This document shows positions 1 to 26,408 of a stretch of DNA of 39,374 nucleotides, in pieces. A program made the translations under genes and the position numbers. The notes under the pieces were generated by a model. The model worked only from the letters and a program-made list of their open reading frames with translations. It was not told the origin of the DNA and made no database searches. Position 1 is the stretch's first letter. Each line of letters starts with the position of its first letter. The DNA is from Gallionellaceae bacterium (lineage in GTDB: Bacteria; Pseudomonadota; Gammaproteobacteria; Burkholderiales; Gallionellaceae), in NCBI GenBank assembly GCA_028713345.1, contig JAQTOM010000002.1, forward strand, positions 1-39,374, in the 5' to 3' direction.

Positions 1-1774
1 AGGGCTGGCACAGGGCATGACATATTTTTTCGGCAACCACCATGGCATCCTGCTCCGTTTCGATGGTCGGCAGCAGCACGATGAATTCGTCGCCGCCTAT
101 GCGCGCGGCAGTATCCGATTCGCGCATACCTTCCTGCAAGCGCCTGGCCACTTCCTTAAGCAGCAGGTCGCCGATGTCGTGGCCGAATTTGTCGTTGACT
201 GGCTTGAAGTTGTCCAGGTCAACAAACATCAGCGCCATGCGCGTTCTATCGCGTCTGGCCTTGGCAAGCGCCTGTCGGATGCGGTCGGTGATCAGTATCC
301 GGTTGGGCAGGTCGGTGAGCACATCGTAGTGCGCCAGATAATGTGCTTGTTCCTCCGCCTGTTTGCGTCCGGTCACATCGTTGTAGATCGCCACGATCTC
401 GCCGCGGCGCAGCTTGAACACGTAATTTTCGCGCCAGCCGCTGATACGGCCGTCATGGTAAAAAGAAACCGGGCATTTTTCCGCCACGCCGCTTTGCCAG
501 ACGCGCCGGAATGTCTCGAGCATGCCCATTTCCGAGATGCCCGGAAAGGCCTCCGTCACGTCCCTGCCGATCACCTCCTCGCGGTTTACTTTTTCGATGT
601 GTTCCGCCGCAGGGTTGAAATCGGTAATGGTGAAATCACGTCCGTCCGGCGACGCGCGATACACCGCAACTCCGCTGTTCAGGTGCTCGAACATTTCCTT
701 CAATTTTGCCTCGTTTTCTGCCAGGGATTCTGCCGTTCGCAGGGTGCGTTGCTGGTCGCGCGCCAGCAGCCAGGCGAGCAGCGTCAGCAACAGGCTCACG
801 CCGCTGGCGGCATTCGCGACGATCTGCGGCTTTTCCCGGTCCAGCCGCGCCTCGAAGGCGGGCAGCGAGTGGAGCACCATCGTCCAGCGACGGTCGTCGA
901 CCTCGACAGGCCGCGTGGCGCGGAAGAGCGGGCGCAACTCGGCGGCATGGGAGTCGTGCAACAGGGTGCTGCCGGAGATCTCGCCGCCATCGTAGATCTC
1001 GATGTCGAATTCAGCGGCATGCTCCCCGAGCACCTCGTCTATCAGATCGTCCATGCGGAATACCGAACTGATCCAGCCGGTGAGGTTGGCGCGGCGCTCC
1101 TCGATCGTGTCGAGCGCCGCGCCGTTGCGGTAGATGGGCAGAAACATCACGAAGCCGGTCTGGGCATCCCGATCGTTCTCGAATACCAGCCTGATCTTGC
1201 CGGAGGAGGTACCCTCGCCCGAATCGCGCGCCTGCTCCATCGCGGCGCGACGCTCCCCGACGGAGCCTCCGGGCAGGGGAGATTCGCGGTCGGAGTACAT
1301 GTCATAGCCGAAGGCGCGCCGGTTGCGCATGTCGAACGGTTCGATGTAAGCCACCGGGGCGTAGGACTCGCGCCTGCCCTCCGGCCAGATGGTGTAGGAG
1401 GGAAAGCCCTGCTTGCGTATGGCGGCGATATGCCGCTCCTTCTCGGCCAGCGGCACGTACTGGACGAAACGCAGTGCCTGAATGCCCGGATAATTTTCTT
1501 CGAGGCGCAGCGCGTTGACATATTCACGGAACTCGCCGCGCTCGACGTCGCGCGAAGCGGCAAACAACCCCTTCGCTCCGCGCATCACCTGTTCGTAGGC
1601 CGCCATGCGCTGCTCGACGCGCATTCTTGCCCCCTCCACGTGGGAATCAAAATCGGCCTGCAGTTCGCGCAGGGCCGCCTGCCGCGCGTCCTTCCACAAC
1701 AGATAGGTGACGCCGAGGGAAACGGCAAGAACCAGGAGCGGCAGAAAACGGCTGAGGCGCAATCTCGTCAACAT
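1..1774 (-). CDS. CHASE-PAS-GGDEF diguanylate cyclase (C-terminus runs off the window)
   Basis: Absent from the ORF track because it is edge-truncated. My reverse-complement translation from ATG 1774 gives MLTRLRLSRFLPLLVLAVSLGVTYLLW (signal anchor). It continues with a CHASE-like periplasmic region (YPGIQALRFVQYVP, ERRAAMEQARDSG), a second TM (ASGVSLLLTLLAWLLA), and a PAS-like segment (MFEHLNSGVAVYRASPDGRDFTITDFNPAAE). The GGDEF domain follows (HYDVLTDLPNR, FVDLDNFKPVNDKFGH, RIGGDEFIVLL; GGDEF codons at 83-97). The listed + ORF 17..1894 is the antisense artefact. An in-frame ATG at 1825 is an alternative start. Confidence 0.85.
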   Translation of the reverse strand, partial: MLTRLRLSRFLPLLVLAVSLGVTYLLWKDARQAALRELQADFDSHVEGARMRVEQRMAAYEQVMRGAKGLFAASRDVERGEFREYVNALRLEENYPGIQALRFVQYVPLAEKERHIAAIRKQGFPSYTIWPEGRRESYAPVAYIEPFDMRNRRAFGYDMYSDRESPLPGGSVGERRAAMEQARDSGEGTSSGKIRLVFENDRDAQTGFVMFLPIYRNGAALDTIEERRANLTGWISSVFRMDDLIDEVLGEHAAEFDIEIYDGGEISGSTLLHDSHAAELRPLFRATRPVEVDDRRWTMVLHSLPAFEARLDREKPQIVANAASGVSLLLTLLAWLLARDQQRTLRTAESLAENEAKLKEMFEHLNSGVAVYRASPDGRDFTITDFNPAAEHIEKVNREEVIGRDVTEAFPGISEMGMLETFRRVWQSGVAEKCPVSFYHDGRISGWRENYVFKLRRGEIVAIYNDVTGRKQAEEQAHYLAHYDVLTDLPNRILITDRIRQALAKARRDRTRMALMFVDLDNFKPVNDKFGHDIGDLLLKEVARRLQEGMRESDTAARIGGDEFIVLLPTIETEQDAMVVAEKICHALCQP

Positions 1775-1804
1775 GCGCGCAAGGTGCTGCGGTACGGGGT
1801 TAGC

Positions 1805-1813
1805 GGGGGGGGG
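1805..1813. repeat. G9 (C9 on the coding strand) homopolymeric tract at the 5' end of the cyclase gene
   Basis: Direct read: tagc-ggggggggg-attagc. It lies 31-39 nt upstream of ATG 1774. It falls inside the reading frame (Pro-Pro-Pro) if translation starts at ATG 1825. Confidence 0.9.
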
Positions 1814-1890
1814 ATTAGCTGCCATTTACAGGAATGCGGTGCGCTGCATCGTTTTGGTTGGGCGGATTTTTGTACACTTGTCGTCAAGGG

Positions 1891-2130
1891 CTAATCGGGT
1901 GCAATATCCCTTACGTCCGGATTGCTGCAAAATTTCTGGCCAAGAAAAGTAATGGCCCATCGACAATCTTTTTCAACCAGACACTCCGCCTTACATCCGT
2001 CTCTCGATACCTTGCACTTGCTGATGTCTACAATGAAGTCCGCTTGCTGTGCGTTTATGATTTTTTCTTGTTTGTCATCAAACAAGTTATGGCCGTTCTG
2101 ATTCATGGCCCTGTCCGGTTTGCCTGGCAT
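1891..2130 (-). CDS. hypothetical small cysteine-rich protein (possibly starting at ATG 2106, MNQNGHN...)
   Basis: A 79-aa ORF in otherwise unassigned, lower-GC DNA, divergent from the Crp/Fnr gene. Five Cys in the pattern C-x7-C-x3-C-x6-C-x11-C (KCKVSRDGCKAECLVEKDCRWAITFLGQKFC), loosely PAN/Apple-like. No recognisable family and no clear SD. Confidence 0.3.
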   Translation of the reverse strand: MPGKPDRAMNQNGHNLFDDKQEKIINAQQADFIVDISKCKVSRDGCKAECLVEKDCRWAITFLGQKFCSNPDVRDIAPD

Positions 2131-2326
2131 ATTTCAGAAAAACGCCGATTAAAAACGCCTCGTTATGGAATTCGCCATTCCTCACCCGTGGCTGAGCGTA
2201 ACAGATAAGCTTATTGTGTTCTGTGCGCGTGCGCACAGTATTGATTACCCCAATTCATTAAGATGCGTCGCATATCAAGCTTTCTCCATAGCGACCGGAG
2301 CCATTATCAAAGACGAAAGATTTCAA

Positions 2327-3040
2327 GTGCCGCATAGAGAACATAAGCCTAAACAGAATCATTTATTAGCTGCGTTGCCACCAGATGAATTCAGAACCCT
2401 GTCTTCCAAGTTTGAAGTGGTTCTGCTCCAAGCCGGAGAGATACTTGCGAAACCTGGTGAACGCCTGAGCTATCTTTATTTCCCGATGAATTGCTCCATC
2501 TCGCTCTATTACCATATGGCAAATGGAGAATCGGCAGAGATTGGCATGATTGGGAATGATGGCATGTTCAGTATTACTTCTATAATGAGTGGGAGCACAT
2601 TGCCTTACCAAACCATTATTGAAACCACGGGACACGCAATTCGGATAAGTATAGAAGTACTAAAAGACGAGTCCAGTCATGCCGAAGCACTACGGCGCAT
2701 ATTATTGCTTTATGCACAGGCAAGGCTGACCCAAATGGCGCAAACCGCAGTTTGCGGCAAGAAACACACGCTCGAGCAACATCTTTGCTTTCATTTGCTG
2801 CTGGTGCATGACAATTCACTTTCAGATGATTTCATTCTTACCCATGAATCCCTTGCCCACATGCTCGGTGTACGTCGTGAGGGTGTAACCAAAGCTGCCG
2901 GAAAGTTGCGCAGCAGCGGGCTGATTGATTACCAATGGGGACATATCAGGATAATTGATCGTGCCGGGCTGGAGGCTCAGTGTTGTGAATGCTACAAAGT
3001 AGTTAAAGGGGAGTTCAGGCGGTTGCTCAGTTACAAGTAG
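2327..3040 (+). CDS. Crp/Fnr-family transcriptional regulator (cNMP-binding-like domain plus C-terminal HTH)
   Basis: NHLLAALPPDEFRTLSSKFEVVLLQAGEILAKPGERLSYLYFPMNC is a cNMP-like beta-barrel. THESLAHMLGVRREGVTKAAGKLRSSGLI is the HTH. The C-terminal CECY motif is typical of one Crp subfamily. The ORF track opens at ATG 2165. The in-frame GTG at 2327 gives the usual length of about 237 aa, so the start is uncertain. Confidence 0.8.
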   Translation: MPHREHKPKQNHLLAALPPDEFRTLSSKFEVVLLQAGEILAKPGERLSYLYFPMNCSISLYYHMANGESAEIGMIGNDGMFSITSIMSGSTLPYQTIIETTGHAIRISIEVLKDESSHAEALRRILLLYAQARLTQMAQTAVCGKKHTLEQHLCFHLLLVHDNSLSDDFILTHESLAHMLGVRREGVTKAAGKLRSSGLIDYQWGHIRIIDRAGLEAQCCECYKVVKGEFRRLLSYK

Positions 3041-3177: not shown

Positions 3178-4236
3178 TCAAATTTTCCCTTGCACCCCCG
3201 CCTCCGCAAACGTCGCCATGTCGTTATGCAAGGCGCACGCCAGCCGAAGGATGGCCACGGCTGTCGCCGCGCCACTCCCCTCCCCCAGGCGCATGCCCAG
3301 ATTCAGCAGCGGCTCGGCCTGCATTGCTTCCAGCATCAGGATGTGCCCCGGCTCCGCCGAGCGATGCGCAAACAGCAGCCAACTCGCTACGCCGGGCTGG
3401 ATGCGCACGGCAAGCAAGGCTGCGACGGTGGAGATGTAGCCATCCGCCAGCACCGGAATGCCGCGTTGCGCGCAACTGATGAATGCGCCGGTGAGCGCCG
3501 CAATTTCGAAGCCGCCGAGACGGCGCAGCGCTTCCAGCGGCTCGCCCAGATGCGCCGCGTGCAGCGCCAGCGCGCGCGCCACGACCTCTGCCTTGCGCTG
3601 CACCCCGGCCTGGTCGAGGCCGGTGCCGGGGCCGGCGAGTTGTTGCGGCGACTTCTGCAACAGGGCGCAGGCCAAGGCCGCGGCCGCAGTGGTGTTGGCG
3701 ATGCCCATCTCGCCGCCGATGTAGAGTTGCGCGCCGGTTTTTTGCGCCTGCACGGCGCTGTCGCAGCCGGCCTGCAAGGCCGCCGCCAACTGGCTTTGCG
3801 TCATGGCGGCTGCGCGCGCGAAGTTGGCCGTGCCCTTGCCCAGATTGCATTGCAGCACGCCCGGCAATTCGCCGGTGTCGAAGGCGGTGCCGAGGTTGAC
3901 CACTTGCAGCGTGGCGCCGAGCTGTTTCGCCAGCACGCTGATCGCCGCGCCGCCGCGCGCGAAATTTTTCACCATCTCGGCGGTCACCGCCTGCGGGAAG
4001 GCCGACACGCCTTCCTCCGCCACGCCGTGGTCGCCCGCGAATATGCTGATGAATACTTTTTCTGCCCGCGGTTTTTCGCAGCCTTGCAGGGCGGCGAGCT
4101 GGATCGCTATCGCCTCCAGTTTGCCCAGCGAGCCGGGCGGCTTGGTCAGTTGTCCCTGACGCGCCTGTGCTGCGCTGCGTGCAGTTTCATTCGGAGCCTT
4201 TGTGGCTTGTGTCAGCCAATGCAAATTCGCAGTCAT
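3178..4236 (-). CDS. cobT: nicotinate-nucleotide--dimethylbenzimidazole phosphoribosyltransferase
   Basis: 352 aa. Motifs: [45 protein letters not shown]. Confidence 0.93.
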
Positions 4237-6490: not shown

Positions 6491-7467
6491 AAAATTTCAC
6501 CCAGGGCTGCGCGCAGCCTGCCCCAATCCGCTTCACTGCCGGGCAGGCCGAAACGCAGGCTATGCGGCTGCGCAAAGTAGCGCGTGAGTATGCCGCGCTG
6601 TGCCAATTGTCGATGGACGGCTGCGGCCTGCTTCGTTGGCGCCCATTGAAACAGCCCGCAACCCCCGGCGGGCGGCAATCCTGCTTCGCACAGCAATTGC
6701 GCGAGACGCACACCATCCTGCATCAGACGTTTGCGTGCTGCCGCCTGCCATGCACGGTCGCGCAGCGCGGCTTGCGCCACGAAGCGCGATGGGCCGGCCA
6801 CGCTCCACGGCCCCAATACAGCGTGCATGCGCGCCAGCAATTCGGTATGCGCCAGCACGAAGCCGATACGCGCCCCGGCCAGCCCGAAAAATTTTCCCAG
6901 CGAACGCAGCACGATCAAACCCGGCGGCATCTGCGGCTGTACGCAACTCGCCTGCGTGCTGGCTTCGATGAAAGCCTCGTCCACGACCAGCCAGCCGCCG
7001 CGTGCCGTCAGGCGCGCATGCCACTCGTGCAAATCTGCCGCAGAGAATAATGTGCCCGTAGGGTTGTTCGGCTGCATCAGCACCAGCACTTCGAGGCTGT
7101 CCACAGCGCCGGCAATTTCTTCTGCCGGCAACTGCACTACTTCGTGTCCGGTGCTGCGCCAGGCATGGCCGTGTTCGGTATAACCCGGATGCAGCACGCC
7201 CGCGCGGCAACGGTCGCGCAAGCGCGGTAGCAGTTGCAGCGCGGCTTGCGAGCCTGCCACGGGCAGCACATCGGGCGTGCCGTAATAAGCCGCCGCAGCT
7301 TCCATCAATCCGTCCTGCTCCTGCGGCAGGTGCGCCCAGGCATCCGGCGGAATCGGCGGCGGCTCGAAGGCTATCGGGTTGATGCCGGTGGACAGGTCCA
7401 GCCAATCCTCCAGCGCAATGCCGTAGCGCGCTGCGGCTGCGCGAGTCTGTCCGCCGTGTTCAAGCAT
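6487..7467 (-). CDS. cobD: L-threonine-O-3-phosphate decarboxylase (class-II aminotransferase fold)
   Basis: [48 protein letters not shown] (PLP-lysine region). The track ORF is extended upstream to 7620. The MLEHGG start overlaps the cbiB stop by 8 nt. The stop overlaps the cobQ ATG (ATGA). Confidence 0.87.
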
Positions 7468-8458
7468 GCAACCACGCTCCAACCAGCAAAAGCAGCAGCG
7501 CCCATAGCCACGCACCGCGTTGCACCAGCGCCGTGGCGCGCGCGATGTCCGGTGCAGACGGCGCATTGCCTGCGCCCAGTGCCGGGCGTTGCTCGCATAC
7601 GCCGTGGTAGTTTGCCGCACCGCCCAGCCTGACCACGAGGCTGCCCGCGCCGCTCGCCATCACCGGCCCGGCATTCGGGCTATCCCAGGCACGCGCCTGT
7701 TGCCGCCAGCAGTGCAAGGCGACAGCCGTATTGCCGAGCAGGGCATAGGTCAGCGCGGTGAGCCGCGCCGGAATGAAGTTCAGCGCATCGTCCAGCCGCG
7801 CCGCCGCCCAGCCGAAGCAGCGATAGCGCGGCGTGCGGTAGCCCCACATCGCGTCCAGCGTATTCGCCAGGCGATACAGCAATGCGCCGGGCGCACCCGC
7901 CAGCACAAACCAGAACAGCGCGCCGAACACTGCGTCGCAACCGTTTTCCAGCACCGACTCGACCCCTGCGCGCGCCACGTCCTGCTCTTGCATCGCGGTC
8001 GTGTCGCGGCTGACGATCTCGCCCACGCGCAGCCGCGCCAGCGCCAGATCATCGGCCTGCAAGGCTTGTCGGATGCGGCGTGCATGTTCATTCAGGCTTT
8101 GCAGGCCAAGGGCAAAATACAAAACCACTACGTTGATCCACGGGCGCAACACTGGCTGTTGCCACAGGAAAATGATCAGGCACAGAAACGGAGCAATGGC
8201 CAGCAGCCATGCCAGCACGCCGCGCAGGCGCCTTGTTGTCCTGATACGCCATTGCAGAAAGACGCTGTTGTAGGAGCGCAACTTGTTGCGCGATGTTTGT
8301 TGAGATCGCGCAACAAGTTGCGCTCCTACGGAGTTTAGATGCTGTTCCAGCCACGCCGCAAGATTTCCGAAGCCCACCAGCGGATGCCAGCGGCGCGGCT
8401 CGCCCAGCAGGCAGTCGAGCAGCAGCGCACACGCCATCATCAGTGCGGTGTTCAGCAT
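7460..8458 (-). CDS. cbiB: adenosylcobinamide-phosphate synthase CbiB, carrying an in-frame 60-nt palindromic insertion
   Basis: LLDCLLGEPRRWHPLVGFG, SRDT, ENGCDAVFGALFW, DAMWGYR, NAGPVMASGAG. The track start 8473 is a GTG. ATG 8458 is preceded by AAGGAA. Confidence 0.9.
   Translation of the reverse strand: MLNTALMMACALLLDCLLGEPRRWHPLVGFGNLAAWLEQHLNSVGAQLVARSQQTSRNKLRSYNSVFLQWRIRTTRRLRGVLAWLLAIAPFLCLIIFLWQQPVLRPWINVVVLYFALGLQSLNEHARRIRQALQADDLALARLRVGEIVSRDTTAMQEQDVARAGVESVLENGCDAVFGALFWFVLAGAPGALLYRLANTLDAMWGYRTPRYRCFGWAAARLDDALNFIPARLTALTYALLGNTAVALHCWRQQARAWDSPNAGPVMASGAGSLVVRLGGAANYHGVCEQRPALGAGNAPSAPDIARATALVQRGAWLWALLLLLVGAWLHA
8270..8329. repeat. REPIN-like element: two perfectly inverted 25-nt REP-type arms and a 10-nt spacer, exactly 60 nt, within the cbiB frame
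   Basis: GTAGGAGCGCAACTTGTTGCGCGAT (8270-8294) is the exact reverse complement of 8305-8329. Each arm contains its own mini-hairpin GCGCAAC-TT-GTTGCGC. It is translated on the minus strand as VGAQLVARSQQTSRNKLRSY. Confidence 0.9.
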
Positions 8459-8553
8459 GTTGTTTCCTTGCACATGGAAATATGGGGTTCGTACCCGGAC
8501 ACGGGGAATTCGGCGAGGAAAAATGTCATGACTGCCACAGCAGGGTGCAGTAA

Positions 8554-11889: not shown

Positions 11890-12054
11890 CGATATTTTCC
11901 TGAGTGAGTTCCAAAGCGACCCCGCTGGAACGTTCAATTACAGGAAATACCGCAGACAACAGGAAGGAAGTGCCAGCTAACCGGTACGGTCAACCAAACC
12001 GCCGTCCATGCGCCGCCCGCAGCATTTCCCGACCCGTGGAATCCTTGAAGGACT

Positions 12055-12230
12055 CCTGCACTCAAGGCCGATATACGGGCTCGCAAGACAAAACGCACCG
12101 CCTTCCCATGATTGCTCACAGTGGCATATTGATACGTCCACACTTGCTTACCGTTGCGGGGGCAGCACAGGTATTTCACCTGTTTCCCGTTTAACCGGAT
12201 AGCGCAAGCTATCCGGCACCTCAATGCGAC
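12055..12230 (-). promoter_or_regulatory. cobalamin (AdoCbl) riboswitch in the btuB leader
   Basis: The minus-strand read contains the conserved core: GGTGCC ... AAACGGGAAACAGGTGAAATACCTGTGCTGCCCCCGCAACGGTAAGC ... GCCACTG ... GGGAAGGC ... and a B12-box-like GAGCCCGTATATCGGCC (12066-12082). It lies about 170-340 nt upstream of the btuB ATG. Confidence 0.85.
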
Positions 12231-12441
12231 AAGAATTGTAACAAGACACTGGAAAATACGGAACAACAATTTCGCTGGCGCTAAAAACACTGTCCATTTG
12301 ATCCTGAATCTGACAGCCAAATCTGTTGTTGTGGTGCAATATTATGATTTTTAACAAAAATTAATTATGAACTAATTATCTTTGCCATGTTGTGCGCTAT
12401 GATCAATTTGCGCAACAATTCTGTGCCAAAAAGTATTCTGG

Positions 12442-13308
12442 TCAATCATCATTCCCACGCACACCCATTTTTGCAAGGATGTCATCGAGCTGATCGAGTG
12501 TTTTATATTCAATTACCAGTTTACCTGCACCCTTTTCGCTGTGGTGTATTACAACCTTTGCTCCAAGCCGGTTCGCAACTTTTTCTTGCAAGCAGAGAGT
12601 GTCACGGCTGGGCGCCGCTTTTTTTTCCCCATGTTTCGCAACAGGGCTCAAAATATTCTGCACCAATTTCTCTGCTTCGCGCACCGATAATCCGCTTGCT
12701 ACAATTTTGTTGGCGGTTGTAATCTGCCGGGCGCCATCCAGCGCCAGCAGTGCCCGGGCATGTCCCATGTCAAGGCCGCCTTCCATCAGCATGGCCTGTA
12801 CCGGCGACGGTAATTTGAGCAGGCGCAGCAGGTTGCTCGCCGCACTGCGCGAACGCCCCACCGCATCTGCGGCGGCCTGATGCGTCATCTTGAATTCATC
12901 TATCAGACGCTGAATACCCACCGCCTCTTCCAGCGGATTAAGATTTTCGCGCTGGATATTTTCGATCAACGCCATGGCCAGCGCAGCGTTATCCGCCACC
13001 TTGCGCACCAGCACTGGCACCTGGCTCAGGCCAGCCAGCTGTGCGGCACGCCAGCGCCGCTCCCCGGCAATGATTTCGTGGCTGCCATCCGGCAACACGC
13101 GCGCCAGGATTGGCTGCATCACGCCCTGTGTTTTGATCGAGACGGCCAACTCGTTGAGCGATGCTTCATCCATGCGGCTGCGCGGCTGGTATTTGCCGGG
13201 CTTGAGCTGGCCAATATTCATTTCGCTCAATACGTCTCCCTGTTCCTTACCGTTACCGGACAGCAGTGCATCCAGACCGCGTCCCAATCCCTTATTCGGT
13301 TTTGCCAT
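12442..13308 (-). CDS. parB: chromosome partitioning protein ParB (Spo0J)
   Basis: Motifs: GLGRGLDALL, QPRSRMDEASLNELAVSIKTQGVMQPIL, IIAGERRWRAAQLAG, and the HTH MTHQAAADAVGRSRSAASNLLRLL. Confidence 0.95.
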   Translation of the reverse strand: MAKPNKGLGRGLDALLSGNGKEQGDVLSEMNIGQLKPGKYQPRSRMDEASLNELAVSIKTQGVMQPILARVLPDGSHEIIAGERRWRAAQLAGLSQVPVLVRKVADNAALAMALIENIQRENLNPLEEAVGIQRLIDEFKMTHQAAADAVGRSRSAASNLLRLLKLPSPVQAMLMEGGLDMGHARALLALDGARQITTANKIVASGLSVREAEKLVQNILSPVAKHGEKKAAPSRDTLCLQEKVANRLGAKVVIHHSEKGAGKLVIEYKTLDQLDDILAKMGVRGNDD

Positions 13309-13323
13309 ATCGTTTCCCTTTTG

Positions 13324-14103
13324 TTAAACCTGTGCGGACTGCTTTGCGTTGTTGAGTAATTCGCCTGCCAAGGCCAAATAGGCCTGCGTACCTTTGGAAA
13401 GCTTGTCGTGATAAAGCGCTGGTACGCCGTAGCTGGGTGCTTCTGCCAACCGTACATTGCGCGGAATAACGGTGCGGTAAACCTTTTCACCAAAATGCTG
13501 CTGCAATTGTTCCGATACCTGCTGCGCCAATGTGTTGCGTGGATCAAACATGGTGCGCAACAAGCCCTCGATTTCAAGATCCGGGTTGAGGTGCGCACGC
13601 ACCTTGCGGATGGTGTTGACCAGGTCGCTCAGGCCTTCCAGCGCATAGTATTCACACTGCATCGGGATCATCACTGATCGCGCAGCACATAATCCGTTTA
13701 AGGTAAGCAGGTTCAATGCAGGTGGGCAATCAATCAATATGTAATCGTATTCCGCCGCCACGGTCTGCAAGGCATCCTTGAGCCGGGTTTCACGGTTTTG
13801 CAAGTCAACCATTTCTATCTCCGCCCCCGCCAGCTCACGGTTGGCGGGCAGCACGTCATATTTCCCGGCCTCAAAGTGAAAACGAGTCTCATGCAAGCTT
13901 TTGCTTCCCAACAGCACATGATAGATGGTTGCCGACAGGTTGCGTTTGTCAATACCGCTGCCCATGGTGGCATTGCCCTGCGGGTCGAGGTCAACCAGCA
14001 AGACCCGCTGTTTCATGGCCGCCAGGCTGGCGGCCAGGTTTACGGTTGTGGTGGTCTTGCCTACTCCACCTTTTTGATTGGTAATCGCTAGTATCTTGGC
14101 CAT
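13324..14103 (-). CDS. parA: chromosome partitioning ATPase ParA (Soj)
   Basis: MAKILAITNQKGGVGKTTTTVNLAASLA (deviant Walker A), LVDLDPQGNAT, ILIDCPP. Confidence 0.95.
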   Translation of the reverse strand: MAKILAITNQKGGVGKTTTTVNLAASLAAMKQRVLLVDLDPQGNATMGSGIDKRNLSATIYHVLLGSKSLHETRFHFEAGKYDVLPANRELAGAEIEMVDLQNRETRLKDALQTVAAEYDYILIDCPPALNLLTLNGLCAARSVMIPMQCEYYALEGLSDLVNTIRKVRAHLNPDLEIEGLLRTMFDPRNTLAQQVSEQLQQHFGEKVYRTVIPRNVRLAEAPSYGVPALYHDKLSKGTQAYLALAGELLNNAKQSAQV

Positions 14104-14104
14104 T

Positions 14105-14725
14105 TCAAATCGCTCTCAATATAACCAGACAACGTTCTGCATCCAGACCCGGTACTTGTAACGGGATAATTTTTTCTACCCTGATATTTGCTGGCAGTTC
14201 TTCCAGCTCCTGGCTTGGCGCACCCTTCATGGCGATCCAGCGTCCGTCTTGTGCCAACAAGTGGCGCGTAAGCGCAGTAAAATCCGCAACCTTGGCAAAT
14301 GCACGGGAAATAATCCCGTCGAACTTCTCTGCCGGCTGCCAGCCTTCCGCACGCTCACAGTAAACGCTCACATTATGTAAACCGAGTTCAATTGCCGCTT
14401 GTTGAACAAAGCTGGTTTTCTTGCTATTGCTATCCAGCATGGTAAACGTCCAATCAGGGCGCAAAAGCGCCAAAGCCAGCCCAGGTAACCCTGCGCCACA
14501 ACCCACATCCAGCCAGTGCCCTGGCCACAAATGCGGTAATACAGCAAGACTATCCAGTAAGTGATGACTTACCATCTGCTCTGGCTGGCGGATTGCGGTC
14601 AGGCTATAAACCTTGTTCCATTTTTGTAGCAGTTCTATGTAGCGTAGCAGCTTTTTCTGGGTTTCCGGTGCAGCGTCTATCCCTAATTGTGCGATGCCGG
14701 ATTCGAGTTCTTGCTCCAGTTTCAT
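14105..14725 (-). CDS. rsmG: 16S rRNA (guanine527-N7)-methyltransferase RsmG (GidB)
   Basis: 206 aa. [31 protein letters not shown]. It has the conserved position downstream of mnmG. Confidence 0.93.
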
Positions 14726-16659
14726 GCGCTTTGCTGTTCTTTCTCTCCACCCTGAGCCGTTATGGCGGGCAGCTTTGCCGCAGTACTTTGAAACCCGCGT
14801 TTCAGGTGCACCAGTAATAACGATATTGCTGCTGGTGTCATGCCGGAAATGCGCGTTGCCTGCCCTACCGTTTCTGGCATGTGCTGGTTGAGTTTTTGCT
14901 GCACTTCGATTGAGAGACCGCGCACTGTGCGATAGTCCATGGCTGGTGGTAACGCCATATTTTCGTAGTGTTCATTGCGTGCGATCTCATCGCGTTGACG
15001 TTCAATATAGCCATGGTATTTGGCCTGAATTTCTACCTGCTCTGCCACTTTTTCGTCGGCAACCGGGTCACCCGCGCCCGGCAACTTCATCAAATCGGCA
15101 TAACTCACATCCGGGCGGCGCAATAACTCGTGCAGCGCATATTCCCGTTCTATGTTTTTGCCCAGTACACGCTCAATATCTTCCTGCGCCAGCATCTTCG
15201 GGTTAACCCAGACGGATTTCAGCCGTTCCTGCTCACGTGCAATTGCCGTGCGCTTTTGCTCGAACGCCTGCCAACGGATCTCGTCTACCACGCCCAGACG
15301 ACGGCCAATTTCCGTTAGCCGCAAATCAGCATTATCTTCACGTAGCTGCAAGCGGTACTCGGCCCGGCTGGTAAACATGCGGTATGGCTCTGACACGCCA
15401 CGCGTAACCAGATCATCTACCATCACGCCCAGATAGGCTTCATCGCGGCCTGGGCACCAGCTTTCTTCCCCCCGTGCACGCAAACCAGCATTAATGCCTG
15501 CCAACAAACCTTGTGCAGCGGCTTCTTCGTAACCCGTGGTGCCGTTGATCTGTCCGGCAAAAAACAAACCTTCAATGGCCTTGGTTTCCAGCGAGCGTTT
15601 CAATCCACATGGATCAAAGTAATCATATTCAATGGCATAACCCGGGCGCGTAATATGTGCATTTTCCAGCCCCTTGATGGAGCGCACCAGCTCCAGTTGC
15701 ACATCAAATGGCAGGCTGGTGGAAATTCCATTAGGGTAAATTTCGTGGGTACTCAGCCCTTCCGGCTCCAGGAATATCTGGTGCGATGTTCTGTCGGCAA
15801 AACGCGTAATCTTGTCTTCGATGGACGGGCAATAGCGCGGCCCTACACCCTCAATTACGCCGGTAAACAGCGGTGAGCGATCCAGGCCGCTACGAATAAT
15901 GTCATGTGTGCGCGGGTTGGTGTGGGTAATCCAGCACGGCAATTGCTGCGGGTGTTGCTGTGCCTGCCCCAGAAAGGAAAATACCGGCACCGGTATGTCA
16001 CCAGGCTGCTCGACCATTACCGAATAATCCACACTACGGCCATCAATGCGGGGTGGGGTGCCTGTTTTCAGCCTGCCTGCCGGCAAATCAAGTTCACGCA
16101 ACCGGTGTGCCAGGCGAATCGACGGCGGGTCACCTGCCCGGCCAGCTTGATAATTGGCTTGACCGATATGGATCAAGCCAGACAAGAAAGTACCGGTAGT
16201 TAATACCACAGTTTTTGCGGAAAAATGCAAGCCAAGCTGGGTTACAGCCCCACATATCCGATTGCCATCAACCAGCAAGTCATCCACTGCCTGCTGGAAC
16301 AACCAGAGGTTGGGTTGGTTTTCCAATCGCTCCCGAATAGCTTGTTTGTATAAAGCACGGTCAGCCTGGGCGCGGGTCGCACGCACTGCATGCCCTTTGG
16401 AAGCGTTGAGAATACGGAACTGGATACCCGCAATATCGGTGGCCGCAGCCATGGCTCCACCCAAGGCGTCCACCTCCTTGACTAAATGCCCCTTACCAAT
16501 ACCGCCGATGGAGGGGTTGCACGACATGAGCCCGAGAGTTTCAATGTTGTGCGTAAGCAATAACGTGGTACAACCCATGCGCGCACTGGCAAGCGCCGCT
16601 TCCGTTCCCGCATGGCCGCCACCCACAACAATTACATCGAATTTTTCCGGGAAATTCAT
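14722..16659 (-). CDS. mnmG: tRNA uridine 5-carboxymethylaminomethyl modification enzyme MnmG (GidA)
   Basis: [70 protein letters not shown]. The track start 16689 adds 10 aa not seen in homologues. Confidence 0.95.
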
Positions 16660-16734
16660 TTGCCTGCTTGCTGAAACGAAGGGGCGCATAATACATCAAA
16701 ATGGAGCTGGCGCAGAAGGAGCAATTGCCCTGTA

Positions 16735-16750
16735 TGTTTCACGTGAAACA
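16735..16750. other. parS: parS centromere-like site (perfect match to TGTTNCACGTGAAACA)
   Basis: TGTTTCACGTGAAACA is a 16-bp perfect palindrome. It lies 5 nt past the mnmE stop and 76 nt upstream of the mnmG ATG. An identical copy is at 23284-23299. Confidence 0.88.
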
Positions 16751-16754
16751 TGAA

Positions 16755-18095
16755 TCATTTACCAATGCAGAATCGGCTGAATATCTCACCAAGCAAGTCG
16801 TCAGGGGTAAATTCACCGGTAATGGAATTGAGAAATTCTTGGGCGAGGCGCAATTCTTCGGCAAAAATTTCTGCCCTGCCCATTTCATTTGCAGCCAGTT
16901 GCAAATGCTCACGCGCTGCCAGCAATGCACGCACGTGGCGCTCACGCGCCATAAATACCCCAGCTTCCTGGTGCCAGCCAATCAATGCGAGCAGCTTATC
17001 GCGCAATATCTCCATCCCGGAGCCGGTTTTGGCGGATAGGTAGATATGGCACTCGCTTCCCTGCTGTTCCGCATACGCGGGTTGGCCGAGCAAATCAACT
17101 TTGTTAAAAACAAGTAACCGTGGGATGCCTGATGGCAAGTCGTCGAGGATTTTCCTGTCATCCAAACTCATGCCCTGAGTGGCGTCCAGCAAAATCAAGA
17201 TGGCGTCCGCCTTTTTCATTGCGCTATGCGTGCGTGCAATGCCCATCTGCTCCACTATATCCTGCGTTACGCGCAAGCCGGCTGTATCAATAATATGCAA
17301 CGGTACCCCGCCGATCTGGATAGCCTGGCGAATAGCGTCGCGCGTAGTGCCAGGAATTTCGCTGACCAATGCGATATCCTCGCCGCTTAACCGGTTGAGC
17401 AGGCTGGACTTGCCGACATTGGGTTGTCCAACCAGGACAATGTGTGCACCTTCGCGCAACAAGCTGCCTTGTTGTGCCAATTTCAGGATTTTTTCCAACC
17501 CTTTGCTCACCAAACCTAATTGAGCACTGCGCCGTACGTTATCCGGTACTTCGATTTCTTCCTCTGGGAAATCCAGCATGGCTTCTACTAACATGCGCAA
17601 CTGGATCAACTCTTTCACTAACTGGTGAATTTCCCGTGAAAACTCACCCTGTAATGAGCGCAAGGCACTGCGTGCGGCTTGACTGGTTGTGGCATCAATC
17701 AAATCGGCCACGCCTTCTGCCTGCGCTAGGTCAAGCTTGTCATTGAGGAATGCGCGTTGAGTAAATTCGCCTGGCTGTGCAATGCGGGCACCTAATTCGA
17801 AACAGCGTTGTAATACTAATTGCAAAACAGCCGTGCCGCCATGGCCTTGCAATTCCAACACGTCTTCGCCGGTATATGAATGCGGTGCCGGAAAGAACAG
17901 GGCAATGCCCTGGTCAATGGCCAGCCCTTGCGCATCAAGGAATGAGGAATAGGCTGCGCATCGCGGGGCGGGTGCTTTACCCAGCACCGCCACTGCCAGT
18001 GGAGCGAGTCCACGCCCAGATACCCGAACAACGCCGATACCTCCACGCCCGGGGGCGGTAGCGATTGCGGCTATGGTATCAAGCCTTGGCAACAC
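16755..18095 (-). CDS. mnmE: tRNA modification GTPase MnmE (TrmE)
   Basis: [45 protein letters not shown], and the C-terminal FCIGK. GTG start overlapping the yidC stop. Confidence 0.95.
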
Positions 18096-19713
18096 CTTTG
18101 GCTTCGGCCTCCAGGCCGCGCGTGATATACCACTGCTGCACTATGGAAAGCACATTATTTACGATGGAATACAGCACCAGTCCGGCTGGAAAGAAGAAAA
18201 ATACTATGCTGAATACAATGGGCATAATCTGCATAAGCTTGGCTTGCAAAGGGTCAGGAGGGGTAGGATTCAGCTTTCCTTGCAACACCATGCTGACACC
18301 CATAATTAACGGTAACACGTAGTATGGGTCGGCGGCTGACAAGTCACTAATCCAACCAAAGAATGGGGCATAGCGCAATTCAACGCTCGCTAAAATAGCC
18401 CAGTACAATGAAATGAATACAGGGATCTGGATCAACACCGGCAAACACCCACCGAGAGGATTGATTTTCTCTGTTTTGTACAGTTCCATCATGGCCTTGT
18501 GCAGGCGCTCACGATCATCACCATACTGTTGCTTTATTTTCTCCAGTTTGGGTGCCACCACACGCATTTTTCCCATGGAACGATAACTGGCTGCCGACAA
18601 CGGGAAAAAGGCCAGCTTGATCAGCACGGTCAACAGAATAATGGCAACTCCCCAGTTGTGCACCCACCCCTGCAAAAAGGAAAGTAACCAGAATAACGGG
18701 GTGGCAATTATGGTCAACCAGCCATAGTCAACCGTCAACCCCAGTCCTGGCGCGATTTTATCCAATGACACCTGTGCTGGCCCTGCATACAGAGGTACGC
18801 CAACCTTGGCACTTTGCCCCGGTACAATAGTAGCAACAGGTAAAATGACACCTGCTGCATAGAGATCATTTTCCAACTGCTTGGTATAAAATTCCCGCTG
18901 AACTTTACCCTTCGGCAGCCAAGCGGCAACAAAATAATGCTGCAGCATACCCACCCAACCATTATCTGCTCGTTGTGGATAGTTAATTTTTCCCTTATCA
19001 ATATCGGAAAAATCCACTTTCTGAAACTTTTCCTGCTCAGTGAAAATGGCTGGACCAGTGTAAGTGGGTACAAACTGCGAGCCGCCTTCAGGAGGAATTT
19101 TATCGCGCAAAAATTGAAAATATACCGAGGGAGAAAGTGGAGCCGTCCCGTTATTTTCGATTTCATAATTCACATCAACCAAATAGCTGCCACGGTGAAA
19201 CACATATATTTTGCTTATCTTTGCACCAGTTACTTCCGTTGCCAGCAAACGAACTTCCAGAAAGTCTTTACCGTCTTCCAGACTGAACTCATTGGCCTGC
19301 GCCGTAAATATTGAATTATGTGTAGGCAATCCAGCACCTAGCAAGCCGGTTTGTGCAATGTAAGTGTGTTTTTTCCCCTCCTGCAGCAACACAAAAGATT
19401 TGCTTTTATCTTGAGCATCATGGTGTTGTAGGAATTCCAAGCGACGCAGATCTGCGCCTACCGTGCTGATTTCTGCAATCAGTTGGTCTGTTTTTACCGT
19501 TATTTTGTGTCCTACCTGGTGTTTCTGCTGTGCCACAACCTCAGTTTGGGCAGTCTTGCCCGCACTTGCCGCTACAACAGCTGACACACCAACTGACGAA
19601 GTAGCAACAGGTATAGTTTGCATTTCTGGGTGTTGTGAACGTTGCCAGCCATCCCACAACAAAAAAACCGAGAAGGAAAAAATAAGAAACAGAAAGAGTC
19701 GTTGAAAATCCAT
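18079..19713 (-). CDS. yidC: membrane protein insertase YidC
   Basis: 544 aa. N-terminal TM ([15 protein letters not shown]), a large periplasmic domain, and the conserved C-terminal core ([43 protein letters not shown]). Confidence 0.95.
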
Positions 19714-19733
19714 GTCGTTTCGTCTAGTTAAAT

Positions 19734-19943
19734 CTAAGGGGCGGGGTCATAGCCGCCCGGATTCCAAGGATTGCAGCGCATTATTCGCTTAATACCCAAC
19801 CATGTACCGTACCACGCACCATGCTTGGCGATAACCTCGCAAGCATAGTGGGAACACGTTGGAGTAAAACGACAAGTAGACGGCTTGAGCGGACTAAACA
19901 AGTATTGGTACACACTTATCAACCCAATTAAAATCTGCCGCAT
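19734..19943 (-). CDS. yidD: membrane protein insertion efficiency factor YidD
   Basis: [31 protein letters not shown]...HG, 69 aa. Its ATG overlaps the rnpA TGA (TGATG). The track ORF is over-extended to 20069. Confidence 0.9.
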
Positions 19944-20305
19944 CACCTCTGTACAACAGCCTGTAATAGTTGTGCCAAAGCCAGCCGTCCTTCTCTTGAA
20001 GTGCATGGGTTTAATTGTCGCTTTGCCCGGACTACCACGTCCAAAGCGCAGTTTTCTGGCAAACTGCACCTGAATACCTCTCTAACCAAGCGCTTGGCAA
20101 AGTTTCTAGATACGGCTTTGGGCATGATTTTCTTGCTGGCTATTACCCCAAGACGAGCGATACTACCTTCGTTTTTATGCACATAAACTGCAAACCATTT
20201 ATTGGTCAAGCAGTTGGCACGAAGCGCCCGTTCAAATTCTGAGCGTTGTCTTAATCGGCTATGAGAAGATAAAGTTTGCTTTGGCCTAGACAGCAAGACG
20301 CGCAC
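19943..20305 (-). CDS. rnpA: ribonuclease P protein component
   Basis: [34 protein letters not shown], and the conserved position between rpmH and yidD. ATG 20305 would overlap rpmH by 20 nt, so the true start may be a downstream non-ATG codon. Confidence 0.85.
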
Positions 20306-20420
20306 GGCCCTTGGCTCTACGAGCCTTAATCACAGCTCTTCCGCCTTGAGTTTTCATGCGAACCAGAAATCCATGTGTACGTTTTCTTTTGGTAACGGAA
20401 GGTTGATAAGTGCGTTTCAT
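20286..20420 (-). CDS. rpmH: 50S ribosomal protein L34
   Basis: Not in the ORF track (44 aa). Reverse-complement translation: [44 protein letters not shown]. Confidence 0.95.
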
Positions 20421-20502
20421 AATTAATGCCCCTAGTAATTTAGAACTTGAAAACCCGCGATTACAATATGTACCGAGCCTTATGTCAAGCTTAATTTTCT
20501 CC

Positions 20503-20533
20503 TGTGGATAACTTTTTGCCTTGCAGGTAGAAT
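20503..20533 (+). promoter_or_regulatory. perfect DnaA box (TGTGGATAA, 20503-20511) overlapping a candidate dnaA promoter (TGGATA-n17-TAGAAT)
   Basis: Direct read of cc-TGTGGATAA-ctttttgccttgcagg-TAGAAT. The -35-like hexamer is at 20505-20510 and the -10 at 20528-20533. This is the classical autoregulatory arrangement. Confidence 0.6.
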
Positions 20534-20571
20534 GTGCTCATAGCTAACCTTTGCATTTTGCCAAGAAAATT

Positions 20572-21924
20572 ATGCTGGATAAAACCTTGTGGGATTCATG
20601 CCTTCATTTCTTTGAAGGTAGTTTACCGCCGCAACAATTCAATTCCTGGATCAAACCGCTAATTTTTGAAATCAACGGTAATCTGATTACACTAACCGCA
20701 CCCAACAGCTTTACACTAAAGCTTGTCCAAGAACGTTTTTTACCAGAAATTATTAAACACGCGGAATCCTTTCTTTCAGGCACACCCTGCTTTGATTTTC
20801 GTATTAAAAAAAAATCTCCTTCTTCCCCATCTACAAAATCACAAACATTTGCAACTGAAGTTATTCAGCCAGAAATTCCGCCTTTACCCAAAACACATAA
20901 AAACCAAAATAAACTCAATCCACAACTTTCCTTTGAAAATTTTGTTATTGGCAAAGCAAATCAATTGGCACATGCCGCAGCAATACAAGTTGCCGAATCC
21001 CCAGGGTTAATATACAACCCATTGTTTATTTACGGCGGAGTTGGATTGGGGAAAACACATTTAATCCAGTCAATCGGTAATTACATGAAAAATAAGAATG
21101 TGCATGCAAAAGTTTGCTATGTACACGCGACTAATTATGTTTCGGATGTTGTACGTGCTGTTCAAACAAAAAAATTTGATGAATTTAAACAGTTTTACAA
21201 TACATTGGATTTGCTATTAATCGATGATATCCAATTTATTGCCGATAAGCCGGGTACACAACAAGAATTTTTCTATACGCTCAACTCATTGATTGACAAC
21301 CATAAACAAGTCGTTATTACCTGTGATACATTTCCAAAAGAAATATCTGGAATGACGCCCCGGTTAACCACGCGATTTAGCTGGGGATTGACAGTAGCTG
21401 TAGAACCGCCCGGTTTAGAAATGAGGGTAGCAATTTTATTACAAAAATCTTCCTGTTCAAACAATCCGATAGACGAAGATGTTGCCTTTTTTATCGCTAA
21501 ACATATTCGTTCCAATATCCGTGAATTGGAAGGCGCATTAAAACGCATAGAGGCTTATTCTAAATTTCATAAGCGTACTATTACGGTAGAACTTGCCAAA
21601 GAAGCGCTAAAAGATTTGTTAGCCTCTCAAAATAAACAAGTCTCTATAGAAAATATTCAAAAAACGGTAGCTGATTTTTACCGCATAAAAGTAGTTGATC
21701 TACTTTCAAAAAAACGCTCTCGTATAATTGCCCGGCCCCGGCAAATTGCTATGTGTTTAGCAAGAGAATTAACCCAATTAAGCTTACCTGAAATTGGAGC
21801 TGCTTTTGGGGATCGCGACCATACAACGGTTATGTATGCTTGTAAAACAATAGAAAATTTACGGAACCAAGATACTGTACTCAACACAAATTTTAACTTA
21901 CTTAACCAAACCTTACGAAATTAA
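20572..21924 (+). CDS. dnaA: chromosomal replication initiator protein DnaA
   Basis: LWDSCLHFFEGSLPPQQFNSWIKPL (domain I), NPLFIYGGVGLGKTHL (Walker A), LLLIDDIQF, RSNIRELEGAL, IARPRQIAMCLARELT..SLPEIGAAFGDRDHTTVMYA (domain IV). The track start 20551 is a TTG; ATG 20572 is preferred. Confidence 0.95.
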   Translation: MLDKTLWDSCLHFFEGSLPPQQFNSWIKPLIFEINGNLITLTAPNSFTLKLVQERFLPEIIKHAESFLSGTPCFDFRIKKKSPSSPSTKSQTFATEVIQPEIPPLPKTHKNQNKLNPQLSFENFVIGKANQLAHAAAIQVAESPGLIYNPLFIYGGVGLGKTHLIQSIGNYMKNKNVHAKVCYVHATNYVSDVVRAVQTKKFDEFKQFYNTLDLLLIDDIQFIADKPGTQQEFFYTLNSLIDNHKQVVITCDTFPKEISGMTPRLTTRFSWGLTVAVEPPGLEMRVAILLQKSSCSNNPIDEDVAFFIAKHIRSNIRELEGALKRIEAYSKFHKRTITVELAKEALKDLLASQNKQVSIENIQKTVADFYRIKVVDLLSKKRSRIIARPRQIAMCLARELTQLSLPEIGAAFGDRDHTTVMYACKTIENLRNQDTVLNTNFNLLNQTLRN

Positions 21925-22154
21925 TATTACCTGGATAATTATAAATTTATATGATTCATATTGGTATATACATATCATTTGTGAATATCTATTAAAAATA
22001 TTTTTTTTACAAAGTTATATACATATTGTTTCTCTTAAAAAATAATCTAAATCCACAATTTTTACACATGATAACTTGTTAAAGTTAAAGAAAAATATAG
22101 TGTTATTAACCGCATAACACCCAATTATTATTATTGTTTAAGGATATATAAAGA
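21925..22154. other. oriC: candidate oriC / DNA-unwinding region in the dnaA-dnaN spacer
   Basis: A 230-bp, extremely AT-rich spacer. Four DnaA-box-like 9-mers each have 2 mismatches: cCTGGATAA 21930-38, TGTGaATAt 21980-88, TTATatACA 22015-23, aaATCCACA 22049-57. There are A/T runs such as attaaaaatatttttttta. Confidence 0.4.
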
Positions 22155-23261: not shown

Positions 23262-23283
23262 ATTACCCCGGCATTAATTTAGT

Positions 23284-23299
23284 TGTTTCACGTGAAACA
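23284..23299. other. parS: parS centromere-like site (perfect)
   Basis: TGTTTCACGTGAAACA in the dnaN-gyrB spacer, 27 nt upstream of the gyrB ATG. Identical to 16735-16750. Confidence 0.88.
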
Positions 23300-23319
23300 A
23301 AATTAAAAAATTATAGTGA

Positions 23320-25707
<2,388 letters not shown>

Positions 25708-25797
25708 CCGGTTTAGTGCAGATTTCCAATCCTGTTCGGCATTGTCTATTTCTTGCTGATTACATTTCAAACGACTTTCATAAGTTATCGTTACCGT

Positions 25798-25827
25798 TTG
25801 ACTTAACAAGCTTTTTTAATTTATAGT
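25798..25827 (+). promoter_or_regulatory. candidate sigma70 promoter TTGACT-n18-TATAGT, placed so the transcript would start at or near ATG 25835 (leaderless)
   Basis: Direct read. The -10 ends 7 nt before the ATG. No SD is present upstream of ATG 25835 or GTG 25826. Confidence 0.35.
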
Positions 25828-25834
25828 GCGTCTC

Positions 25835-26035
25835 ATGCAAACAGAATTGGACGCGTTAGAAGGTAAGTTGGCTCAACTAGTACAGTTAAGCCAGCGTCTA
25901 CGTGCAGAAAATCACCAATTGCGCCAAGAGTTGGCAACAGCCTTAAGCCAAGGGCGCCTATCCAACGACAAAATGGAAAGCGCGCGCAAGCACTTGGAAA
26001 ATTTGCTGGCTCAACTCCCCGAAGATATTGCATGA
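25835..26035 (+). CDS. small coiled-coil protein upstream of zapA (ZapB-like / conserved zapA-associated family)
   Basis: MQTELDALEGKLAQLVQLSQRLRAENHQLRQELATAL... has a heptad-like pattern. Its stop overlaps the zapA ATG (ATGA). As I recall, a small coiled-coil gene precedes zapA in many beta- and gammaproteobacteria. Confidence 0.7.
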   Translation: MQTELDALEGKLAQLVQLSQRLRAENHQLRQELATALSQGRLSNDKMESARKHLENLLAQLPEDIA

Positions 26036-26346: not shown

Positions 26347-26408
26347 GTTTACCCATGTAATATTTGTGAAGTCAACTCTGTTTTGTGAGAAGTTCGACTA
26401 AAAATTAT

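Follow-up and report, generated by a model that had tools for sequence, protein, structure and literature searches.

Intragenic REP sequences in described systems

Repetitive extragenic palindromic sequences (REPs) of the GTAG-1 type, and their paired form, the REPINs (REP doublets forming hairpins), reportedly occur together with REP-associated tyrosine transposases (RAYTs), as Bertels and Rainey are said to have described in 2011. The subject of the present analysis is a REP doublet that lies inside a gene: a perfect 60-nt palindrome within cbiB (cobD, adenosylcobinamide-phosphate synthase) of a Gallionellaceae bacterium, on a 39,374-nt stretch of contig JAQTOM010000002.1 (assembly GCA_028713345.1), referred to here as the window. 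We consider it likely that a REP doublet of a RAYT-associated family, with part of its usual flank, became fixed in frame in a tolerant loop of CbiB, where it would be a translated but neutral passenger.

Intragenic GTAG and CGTC REPs “entirely located within ORFs” (open reading frames) of known proteins have been catalogued (Di Nocera 2013, PMC3733652). According to the same study, more than half of the intragenic inserts are dimers or groups encoding 20–30 residues, P. putida GTAG-1 dimers are read as VGAG..., GTAG ends often provide TAG stop codons, and the inserts may occupy flexible loops. It also discusses REP dimers nested in longer palindromes, together with homodimers versus heterodimers, and assigns “GW extra bases” and a “3-bp tail” to GTAG-1/2 REPs in its Table 1. 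The original prediction for this locus held that ORF-preserving insertion was undescribed for REPs and REPINs, which was wrong: since intragenic GTAG REP dimers of 20–30 residues are already catalogued, an in-frame REP dimer is not a new phenomenon, and what is new here is the taxon and the gene that host the dimer, together with the repeated use of a single loop. The cbiB copy shares with the catalogued inserts its position as a dimer wholly in the ORF of a known protein and the common GTA-GGx frame (“VGA...”). A term search of the supplementary files of that study, including Additional file 3, returned neither CbiB nor CobD, the sole cobalamin-related entry being the O. terrae “cobalamin synthesis protein P47K,” and Gallionella is unmentioned in its main text.

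Among the REPs in Table 1 of Nunvar 2010 (PMC2817692), those of P. entomophila (TGTAGGAGCGGATTCATCCGCGAT) and X. axonopodis (GTAGGAGCGCACCtGGGCGCGAC) share the layout of the window arm: GTAG, GA, a short GC-rich stem, a loop of 2–4 nt and a GCGA(T/A) tail. The suggested resemblance to Pseudomonas REPs consequently holds against published sequences. The likeness extends to inverted doublets, compensatory stem variants and REP-flanked RAYT genes, while the differences lie in the Gallionellaceae-like betaproteobacterial host, the stem GCGCAAC, the window copy being a perfect homodimer in a gene, and the wrapping of many family copies in an additional outer inverted repeat, here called the shell.

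How REPs spread is poorly understood; in vitro, the E. coli enzyme TnpAREP can cut its cognate REPs as single strands and join them again, and a GTAG motif with a hairpin is its established recognition rule (PMC3479197, PMC8266576). The predicted RAYTs beside the present family are homologous to TnpAREP (PDB 4ER8). As in E. coli, where REPs form bacterial interspersed mosaic elements (BIMEs), the window arm is also arranged in tandem in Halomonas koreensis, in a BIME-like manner. The stems are short and perfect in this family but bulged and imperfect in E. coli; perfect palindromes are likewise found in Corneloup's second REP group.

Two further systems invite comparison. Rickettsia palindromic elements (RPEs; Ogata 2000, cited in PMC3733652) are likewise in-frame palindromic inserts in conserved, presumably functional proteins. 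However, the sequences are unrelated, the RPE-1 elements exceed the window element in length and the window host is free-living; in addition, RPE-4 and RPE-6 in Di Nocera's classification bear a CGTC tag and lack a transposase of their own, whereas the window element bears a GTAG tag and belongs to a family associated with RAYTs in related genomes. The window element thus does not belong to the RPE sequence families, with which it shares its in-frame behavior alone. Bacterial miniature inverted-repeat transposable elements (MITEs) such as Correia/NEMIS, ERIC and Nezha resemble the shell-wrapped copies in their terminal inverted repeats, possible AT-rich target duplication and palindromic interior. 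They differ from them in that the core here is a RAYT-type REP doublet and in that the window copy is without one terminal repeat and without a duplication.

Structure of the palindrome and its position in CbiB

An inverted-repeat search found the two 25-nt arms (Table 1) to be 100% complementary, each containing the inner hairpin GCGCAAC-TT-GTTGCGC, and the 60-nt palindrome to be the longest and sole perfect inverted repeat of the window. With up to three mismatches allowed, the arm matches only these two sites in the window, and none in 100 dinucleotide-preserving shuffles. Each arm displays the features of the GTAG super-family, namely a short palindrome (20–40 nt in the definition) after an unpaired GTAG tag, together with the two extra GW bases and the 3-nt tail of the GTAG-1/2 types. 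The two arms form a homodimer with the GTAG ends outward (“HH” in Di Nocera's terms), and as two close inverted REPs that make one long hairpin they have the architecture of a REPIN. The mRNA-sense RNA folds into a single 25-bp stem (−48.3 kcal/mol, z = −10.4), and the single-stranded DNA fold is similarly extreme (−33.1 kcal/mol, z = −12.0). The spacer, GTTTGTTGAG, is similar to those of doublets at other loci: GTCTCTGA in L026, TGCTCTGG in L125 and GGCTCTGG in L079 (L-numbers denote loci or contigs of related genomes and P-numbers homologous proteins). No Rfam family covers the element, and no further REP, shell or GGGGAGG-type copies (the last two are described below) were found in the window. 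A consensus scan called the inner REP hairpin with the T-rich spacer at 8276–8291 of the plus strand, antisense to cbiB, terminator-like, and called no comparable site at the hairpin on the mRNA strand.

The palindrome is read as VGAQLVARSQQTSRNKLRSY, between ...EQHLNS and NSVFLQWRI..., without a stop codon. Two of the three frames of the element are open in both orientations, and the third meets the TAG within GTAG. The perfect arms with their spacer and inner hairpins, the stop-free in-frame reading and the REPIN architecture had all been proposed from the sequence; the repeat search, the minus-strand ORF, and the arm layout, inverted pairing and RAYT association of the family bear them out.

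Table 1. Features of the cbiB locus and RAYT genes adjoining related REPs
Feature	Location	Strand	Description
cbiB/cobD (adenosylcobinamide-phosphate synthase) ORF	window, 7460–8473	−	Pfam PF03186 CobD_Cbib
REP arm 1	window, 8270–8294		GTAGGA + stem GCGCAAC + loop TT + stem GTTGCGC + tail GAT; GTAG tag outermost
Spacer	window, 8295–8304		10 nt, separates both arms
REP arm 2	window, 8305–8329		exact reverse complement of arm 1
One-sided flank, putatively arriving with the doublet	window, 8236–8269		degenerate half of outer inverted repeat; reads NSVFLQWRIRT(T); local alignment
Cobalamin riboswitch	window, 12049–12238	−	RF00174, 108 bits; upstream of btuB
RAYT	L099, 1680–2159	−	NCBIfam NF047646; Pfam Y1_Tnp; PDB 4ER8
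RAYT	L025, 2345–2782		NCBIfam NF047646
RAYT	L108, 6918–7391		NCBIfam NF047646

The host gene appears intact. It encodes 337 residues from a GTG start, or 332 from an alternative ATG at 8458, and the Pfam match is one stretch spanning the insert (E = 3e-91, profile positions 2–281 of 282). In a 121-sequence alignment that includes the window CbiB itself as a row, this protein has the shared residue at all 70 of the 70 invariant columns. The full-length profile match and these conserved residues place it in the CbiB/CobD family.

The insert site is the most length-variable loop of CbiB, which connects the first amphipathic helix to transmembrane helix 2. From the nearly invariant Asn42 to the invariant Gly80, 110 of the 120 closest homologs have 7, 8 or 12 residues, compared with 37 in the window protein. 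The closest orthologs, which are 80–85% identical, have a 12-residue loop encoded by DNA without a palindrome and thus represent an empty site. Over a wider sampling of 104 diverse representatives, the segment from E38 to G80 spans 10–40 residues (median 16), the 41 residues of the window protein being the longest, and none of the 104 carries a segment resembling the insert. Consistent with these results, most matches in a phmmer search against 1.8 billion representatives break at the insert and resume at about query residue 75. The comparison with orthologs that had been proposed for recognizing a lineage-specific insertion therefore gave the expected outcome, and these alignments support reading the REP doublet in cbiB as a lineage-specific in-frame insertion.

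The palindrome accounts for most of the extra length of this CbiB, as had been claimed, but not for all of it. Likewise, the figure of exactly 60 nt is correct for the palindrome and too small for the insert, since the inserted DNA probably includes about 34 nt at 8236–8269 that also appear to be element-derived. In local alignment this flank scores 22 against the flank of the doublet in L007, a value matched by 0 of 2000 shuffles, and its similarity to the L026 flank has p ~0.004; from 8330 onward, in turn, the sequence is conserved cbiB without similarity to an element flank. The residue count agrees with this delimitation: when the 20 REP residues and NSVFLQWRI are subtracted from the 37-residue loop, S + RTTRRLR is left, which is the common 8-residue loop. 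The Asn-Ser noted on both sides of the palindrome is present in the sequence. It was not accepted as a target duplication, since the second AAC AGC is part of the conserved element flank (consensus AACGCTGTT, the complement of AACAGCGTC in the mRNA).

An AlphaFold2 model of CbiB has a mean predicted local distance difference test score (pLDDT) of 93 and a predicted template modeling score of 0.89. Residues 44–63 are modeled as prolonging the helices at 26–56 and 64–99, with a turn at 57–63 and pLDDT values of 75–83, the lowest in that half of the protein; the modeled shape is tentative because homologs give no information on this stretch. The loop contains 9 Arg/Lys versus 2 acidic residues, and the insert contributes four further Arg/Lys and no acidic ones. 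By the positive-inside rule alone, an Arg/Lys-rich loop of this kind would be cytoplasmic.

Related copies, RAYT genes and genomic context

To place the arm in a wider setting, a collection holding one genome per species (596 Gb) was scanned with the 17-base arm core GGAGCGCAACNNGTTGCGC. By our arithmetic, about 70 matches to this pattern are expected by chance in such a volume; the 119 loci listed are mostly unrelated coding sequences, and family members were sorted from them by their full and partner arms. The same arm is present in at least 16 Gallionellaceae-like and 3 Halomonadaceae assemblies (at least 19 in all), mostly as inverted doublets between genes, and at least 15 other assemblies contain a 25-mer identical to that of the window. 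Among the matches listed, the family hosts are Gallionella, Sideroxydans, Ca. Ferrigenium straubiae and metagenome-assembled genomes (MAGs) labeled Gallionellaceae, Nitrosomonadales or “beta proteobacterium,” along with one Methylophilaceae MAG, one Burkholderiales MAG and three Halomonadaceae. In a full-text search of the literature, GTAGGAGC was encountered in primer sequences only.

The family follows the formula GTAGGAGC-stem-loop-stem-GCGAT or, more generally, GTAG-GA-[stem]-loop-[stem']-GAT. A full arm, GTAGGAGCGCAACTTGTTGCGCGAT, usually has an inverted partner that is a few bases off, with the same layout and another inner stem (e.g., GTAGGAGCCCGACTTGTCGGGCGAT), and inverted doublets with spacers of 3–21 nt are the customary form. 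A scan of metagenome contigs for homodimeric doublets yielded a second homodimer, at L125 2286–2343, with an 8-nt spacer and located between two M16 peptidase genes. Perfect homodimers consequently occur elsewhere yet are uncommon, the heterodimer being the customary form of the family.

Across 14 distinct units, four of the seven stem pairs change on both sides, in agreement with maintenance of the stem by compensatory substitutions in a set partly selected for perfect stems. In register, 99% of cells are paired, compared with 25–48% when the stem partner is slid, a figure of 99% that is inflated and partly circular because many units were chosen by a perfect-stem filter. Homologous arms and spacer recur at non-orthologous loci (the window cbiB, L007, L026, L079 and L125) whose likeness is limited to the element and its shell, which is the behavior of a REPIN as a replicating unit. 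L026 and L125 were also considered as orthologous loci, and this was rejected, their similarity amounting to ~89 nt of element and shell.

REPs and REPINs had been described as normally extragenic, and all other examined copies of this family lie between long ORFs, the exceptions being the window copy and that of L120. Apparent in-gene insertions at L037 (730 residues, or 767 from stop to stop), L038 (579 residues) and L026 (253 residues) were rejected as antisense shadow ORFs or as ORFs with no Pfam match. At L037, for instance, the 730-residue ORF (589–2781, minus strand) is an antisense shadow that covers a pair of real genes on the plus strand as well as the REP doublet separating them; such ORFs are a trap in scoring repeats as intragenic.

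In Halomonadaceae, which are Gammaproteobacteria, the window-identical 25-nt arm is present at L093, L050 and L054, so that one REP sequence type is common to two proteobacterial classes. The Halomonas koreensis array mentioned above spans L093 7350–7998 with a period of ~155 nt, the arm alternating with an oppositely oriented REP that has a GCGCAGC stem.

The association with RAYTs was observed at three loci, L099, L025 and L108, that had been retrieved solely for containing the REP. At each of them, these REPs directly bound a RAYT gene of 150–155 residues (Table 1), whose product scores 131–138 bits against the NF047646 model, “REP-associated tyrosine transposase” (cut-off 80). The L099 protein also matches the E. 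coli TnpAREP structure (PDB 4ER8) with E = 2.7e-8, and the REP abutting the stop codon of its gene, GTAGGAGCGCAACTTGTTGCGCGAA, matches 24 of the 25 bases of the window arm. At L099 (1680–1683) and L025 (2776–2790), the TAG of GTAG doubles as the RAYT stop codon (...TGG CTG TAG GAGC), leaving no spacer. The gene order cysS, RAYT, pilin-like gene is common to both loci, which suggests a resident, vertically inherited RAYT.

Many copies are enclosed by a shell with a consensus of approximately TTTATCCCRRATAATCCATTAG and a linker ...GAAACGCTGTT, whose ends lie on both sides of the doublet in L007 (5290–5430), L026 (2380–2560) and L108 (2140–2370). In L124 and L127, the shell also encloses an unrelated palindromic core, here termed GGGGAGG-type, within the loop region of cbiB, which suggests a composite element in which a shell carries swappable palindromic cores, either a REP doublet or a GGGGAGG-type one. 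Shell-less REP doublets exist as well, for example at L037, L046 and L115 and next to the RAYT genes.

Regarding the genomic context, cbiB belongs to a B12 operon on the minus strand, consisting of the cobalamin riboswitch, btuB, a gene for a 202-residue membrane protein, cobO, cbiB, the CobD aminotransferase gene and cobQ. With the riboswitch upstream of btuB, the polycistronic operon that includes cbiB and its hairpin is under B12 regulation. The gene order around cbiB is that of L122, the contig of the closest CbiB homolog, and the named CbiB and DnaN homologs (Gallionella, Ferrigenium, Ca. Nitrotoga) point to Gallionellaceae or Nitrosomonadales.

The window also contains the chromosomal origin region (12442–25707), with parB, parA, rsmG/gidB, mnmG/gidA, mnmE, yidC and rnpA on the minus strand and dnaA (20551–21924), dnaN and gyrB on the plus strand. 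The cumulative GC skew has its minimum at ~21–22.5 kb. A wide AT-rich trough (19500–27000) is centered on dnaA-dnaN, the GC content being 33–37% at 21–24 kb versus 62–66% in the cob genes at 3–9 kb, and the GC content at third codon positions 0.21–0.36 versus 0.72–0.79. The DnaN homologs are Nitrosomonadales/Gallionellaceae-like (best match 98%, next ~85%), and a chimeric contig is accordingly not indicated. The 98% identical relative is on a 2.2-kb contig that ends short of cbiB.

Recurrent use of the CbiB loop and competing explanations

Other lineages also carry inserts in this loop. In P0012 (L120) it contains a different GTAG REP doublet, GTAGGAGCATGCCCTGC...GCAGGGCATGCTCCTAC, read as VGACPACESHAGHAPT, while P0009 and P0010 have just GCTCCTAC at the matching place. 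In the P0009 gene this lone 8-nt REP end (L123 3127–3134) stands where the related P0012 gene has the whole doublet, and it could be either a deletion footprint or the pre-insertion state. The loops of P0011 (L127), P0018 (L124) and P0109 (L126) carry the GGGGAGG-type core in frame. These three inserts are preceded by TTRAAC and terminate in TTAAAT; a match to the shell motif was obtained for L124 and L127 but not for L126. Other Gallionellaceae CbiB proteins have inserts of 15–57 extra residues, with the rest of the sequence conserved.

The second palindromic family, AACCCCTCCC..CCTCCCCTTGTCAGGGGAGG..CCCCCCTGACAAGGGGGG..GGGGGTT, was observed in L099 (~2606–2680, within cysS), L124 (3150–3340), the cbiB loops of L126 and L127, and L007 (~3540–3625). 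The core in the L099 cysS is in frame and encodes the peptide PPGLPLSGEVAGSPLTRGAGGV, and the cysS ortholog in L025 has a much shorter, unrelated stretch at this position. Repeated occupation of the CbiB loop may reflect either independent hits on a preferred target or rearranged older inserts. A tentative proposal, to which we give less than an even chance, is that the loop after the Leu-Asn codons (TTRAAC/CTAAAC) is a recurrent and possibly sequence-targeted landing site for shell elements with interchangeable cores in Gallionellaceae, the inserts being kept in frame and translated.

For the window copy itself, the explanation that we favor is a RAYT-type insertion. The 60 nt are a REPIN of two identical inverted GTAG-type REPs, and the enzyme acting on the REP hairpins of this family would be a RAYT, which is an HUH/Y1 transposase akin to those of IS200/IS605. 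One such doublet would have inserted in cbiB directly after the conserved Leu-Asn codons, carrying along ~34 nt of accompanying flank. It would have survived because its length keeps the frame, its GTA-GGA-GCG frame is stop-free and the loop tolerates large changes in length. Transcribed with the B12-riboswitch operon, the insert would be translated as a basic stretch of ~29–31 residues, and its effect on the enzyme is most likely neutral, that of a passenger rather than an adaptation.

Several observations weigh against this explanation. The 39 kb of genome holds a single doublet, and no RAYT gene was found in it; the syntenic relative L122 (21 kb) is without any REP copy, and the pairing figure given above is inflated. 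There is no clean junction, the loop being too divergent for the insert boundaries to be drawn and no target duplication being visible. The presence of a single degenerate shell half next to perfect REP arms implies a history that was probably multi-step. Furthermore, production and activity of the insert-bearing CbiB are predictions.

The mover could have been either a RAYT or a transposase acting on the shell, and we regard the latter as the mobilizing step as unlikely, albeit to be taken seriously. In its full form, this alternative describes a composite MITE: a classical transposase, of the kind that duplicates its target, would have moved the shell and the REP doublet at its core without any RAYT, and the other shell half would have been lost later. 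We judge it to be equally unlikely. It would account for the shell ends that flank REP doublets in three loci and an unrelated core in two cbiB loops, for the shell half kept beside the window doublet, and for TTRAAC and TTAAAT bordering the L124, L126 and L127 inserts, which may be a 6-bp target duplication. However, these AT-rich ends are equally explicable as part of the inverted repeat, no shell transposase was identified, and doublets exist without a shell. The window copy, moreover, has one degenerate shell half and no recognizable duplication, rather than the two terminal inverted repeats and target-site duplication that define a MITE.

Co-option of the insert is improbable in our view. 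The hairpin might act as an RNA element, blocking 3'-5' exonucleases, attracting RNase III or slowing ribosomes and so setting the ratio of upstream to downstream products, or the peptide might be a functional extension of CbiB. The high stability of the hairpin, the perfection of the arms beside a decayed shell half and the riboswitch control of the operon are compatible with such a role, and REPs are said to stabilize upstream mRNA, as attributed to Newbury in 1987. A recent event would nevertheless account for perfect arms just as well, the hairpin on the mRNA strand is not followed by a T-run of the terminator kind, the closest relatives keep the same operon without the insert, and unrelated sequences at the same place in other lineages fit tolerance better than function. 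A recent event could also mean that cbiB was inactivated and is now a young, undecayed pseudogene, the insert adjoining a transmembrane helix; this is still less probable, given that the ORF is intact and in frame, all residues common to the 120 homologs are retained, the model is confident outside the insert, and the same loop varies so widely in other CbiB proteins, including those of other Gallionellaceae. Finally, perfect palindromes can arise from chimeric reads and this genome is known from a single assembly, but an assembly or sequencing artifact is extremely improbable: it would not recreate base for base a REP arm common to many genomes, nor add the one-sided flank of the element while preserving the cbiB frame, and fold-backs invert flanking sequence, whereas here the gene continues on both flanks.

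These findings extend the GTAG/RAYT REP system to Gallionellaceae-like betaproteobacteria and provide a clean, readily tested example of a REP doublet in a conserved membrane enzyme, where it is predicted to be translated. In practical terms, “VGA...” peptides and a 25-bp mRNA hairpin could mislead the annotation, alignment and structure prediction of CbiB. If the occupation of the loop reflects targeting rather than tolerance, the choice of sites by such elements, and the accommodation of inserts by proteins, could be studied in a tractable system. Should the landing-site proposal be true, it would, together with the in-frame core in cysS, represent an RPE-like “decoration” of conserved proteins in free-living iron-oxidizing betaproteobacteria rather than an isolated accident.

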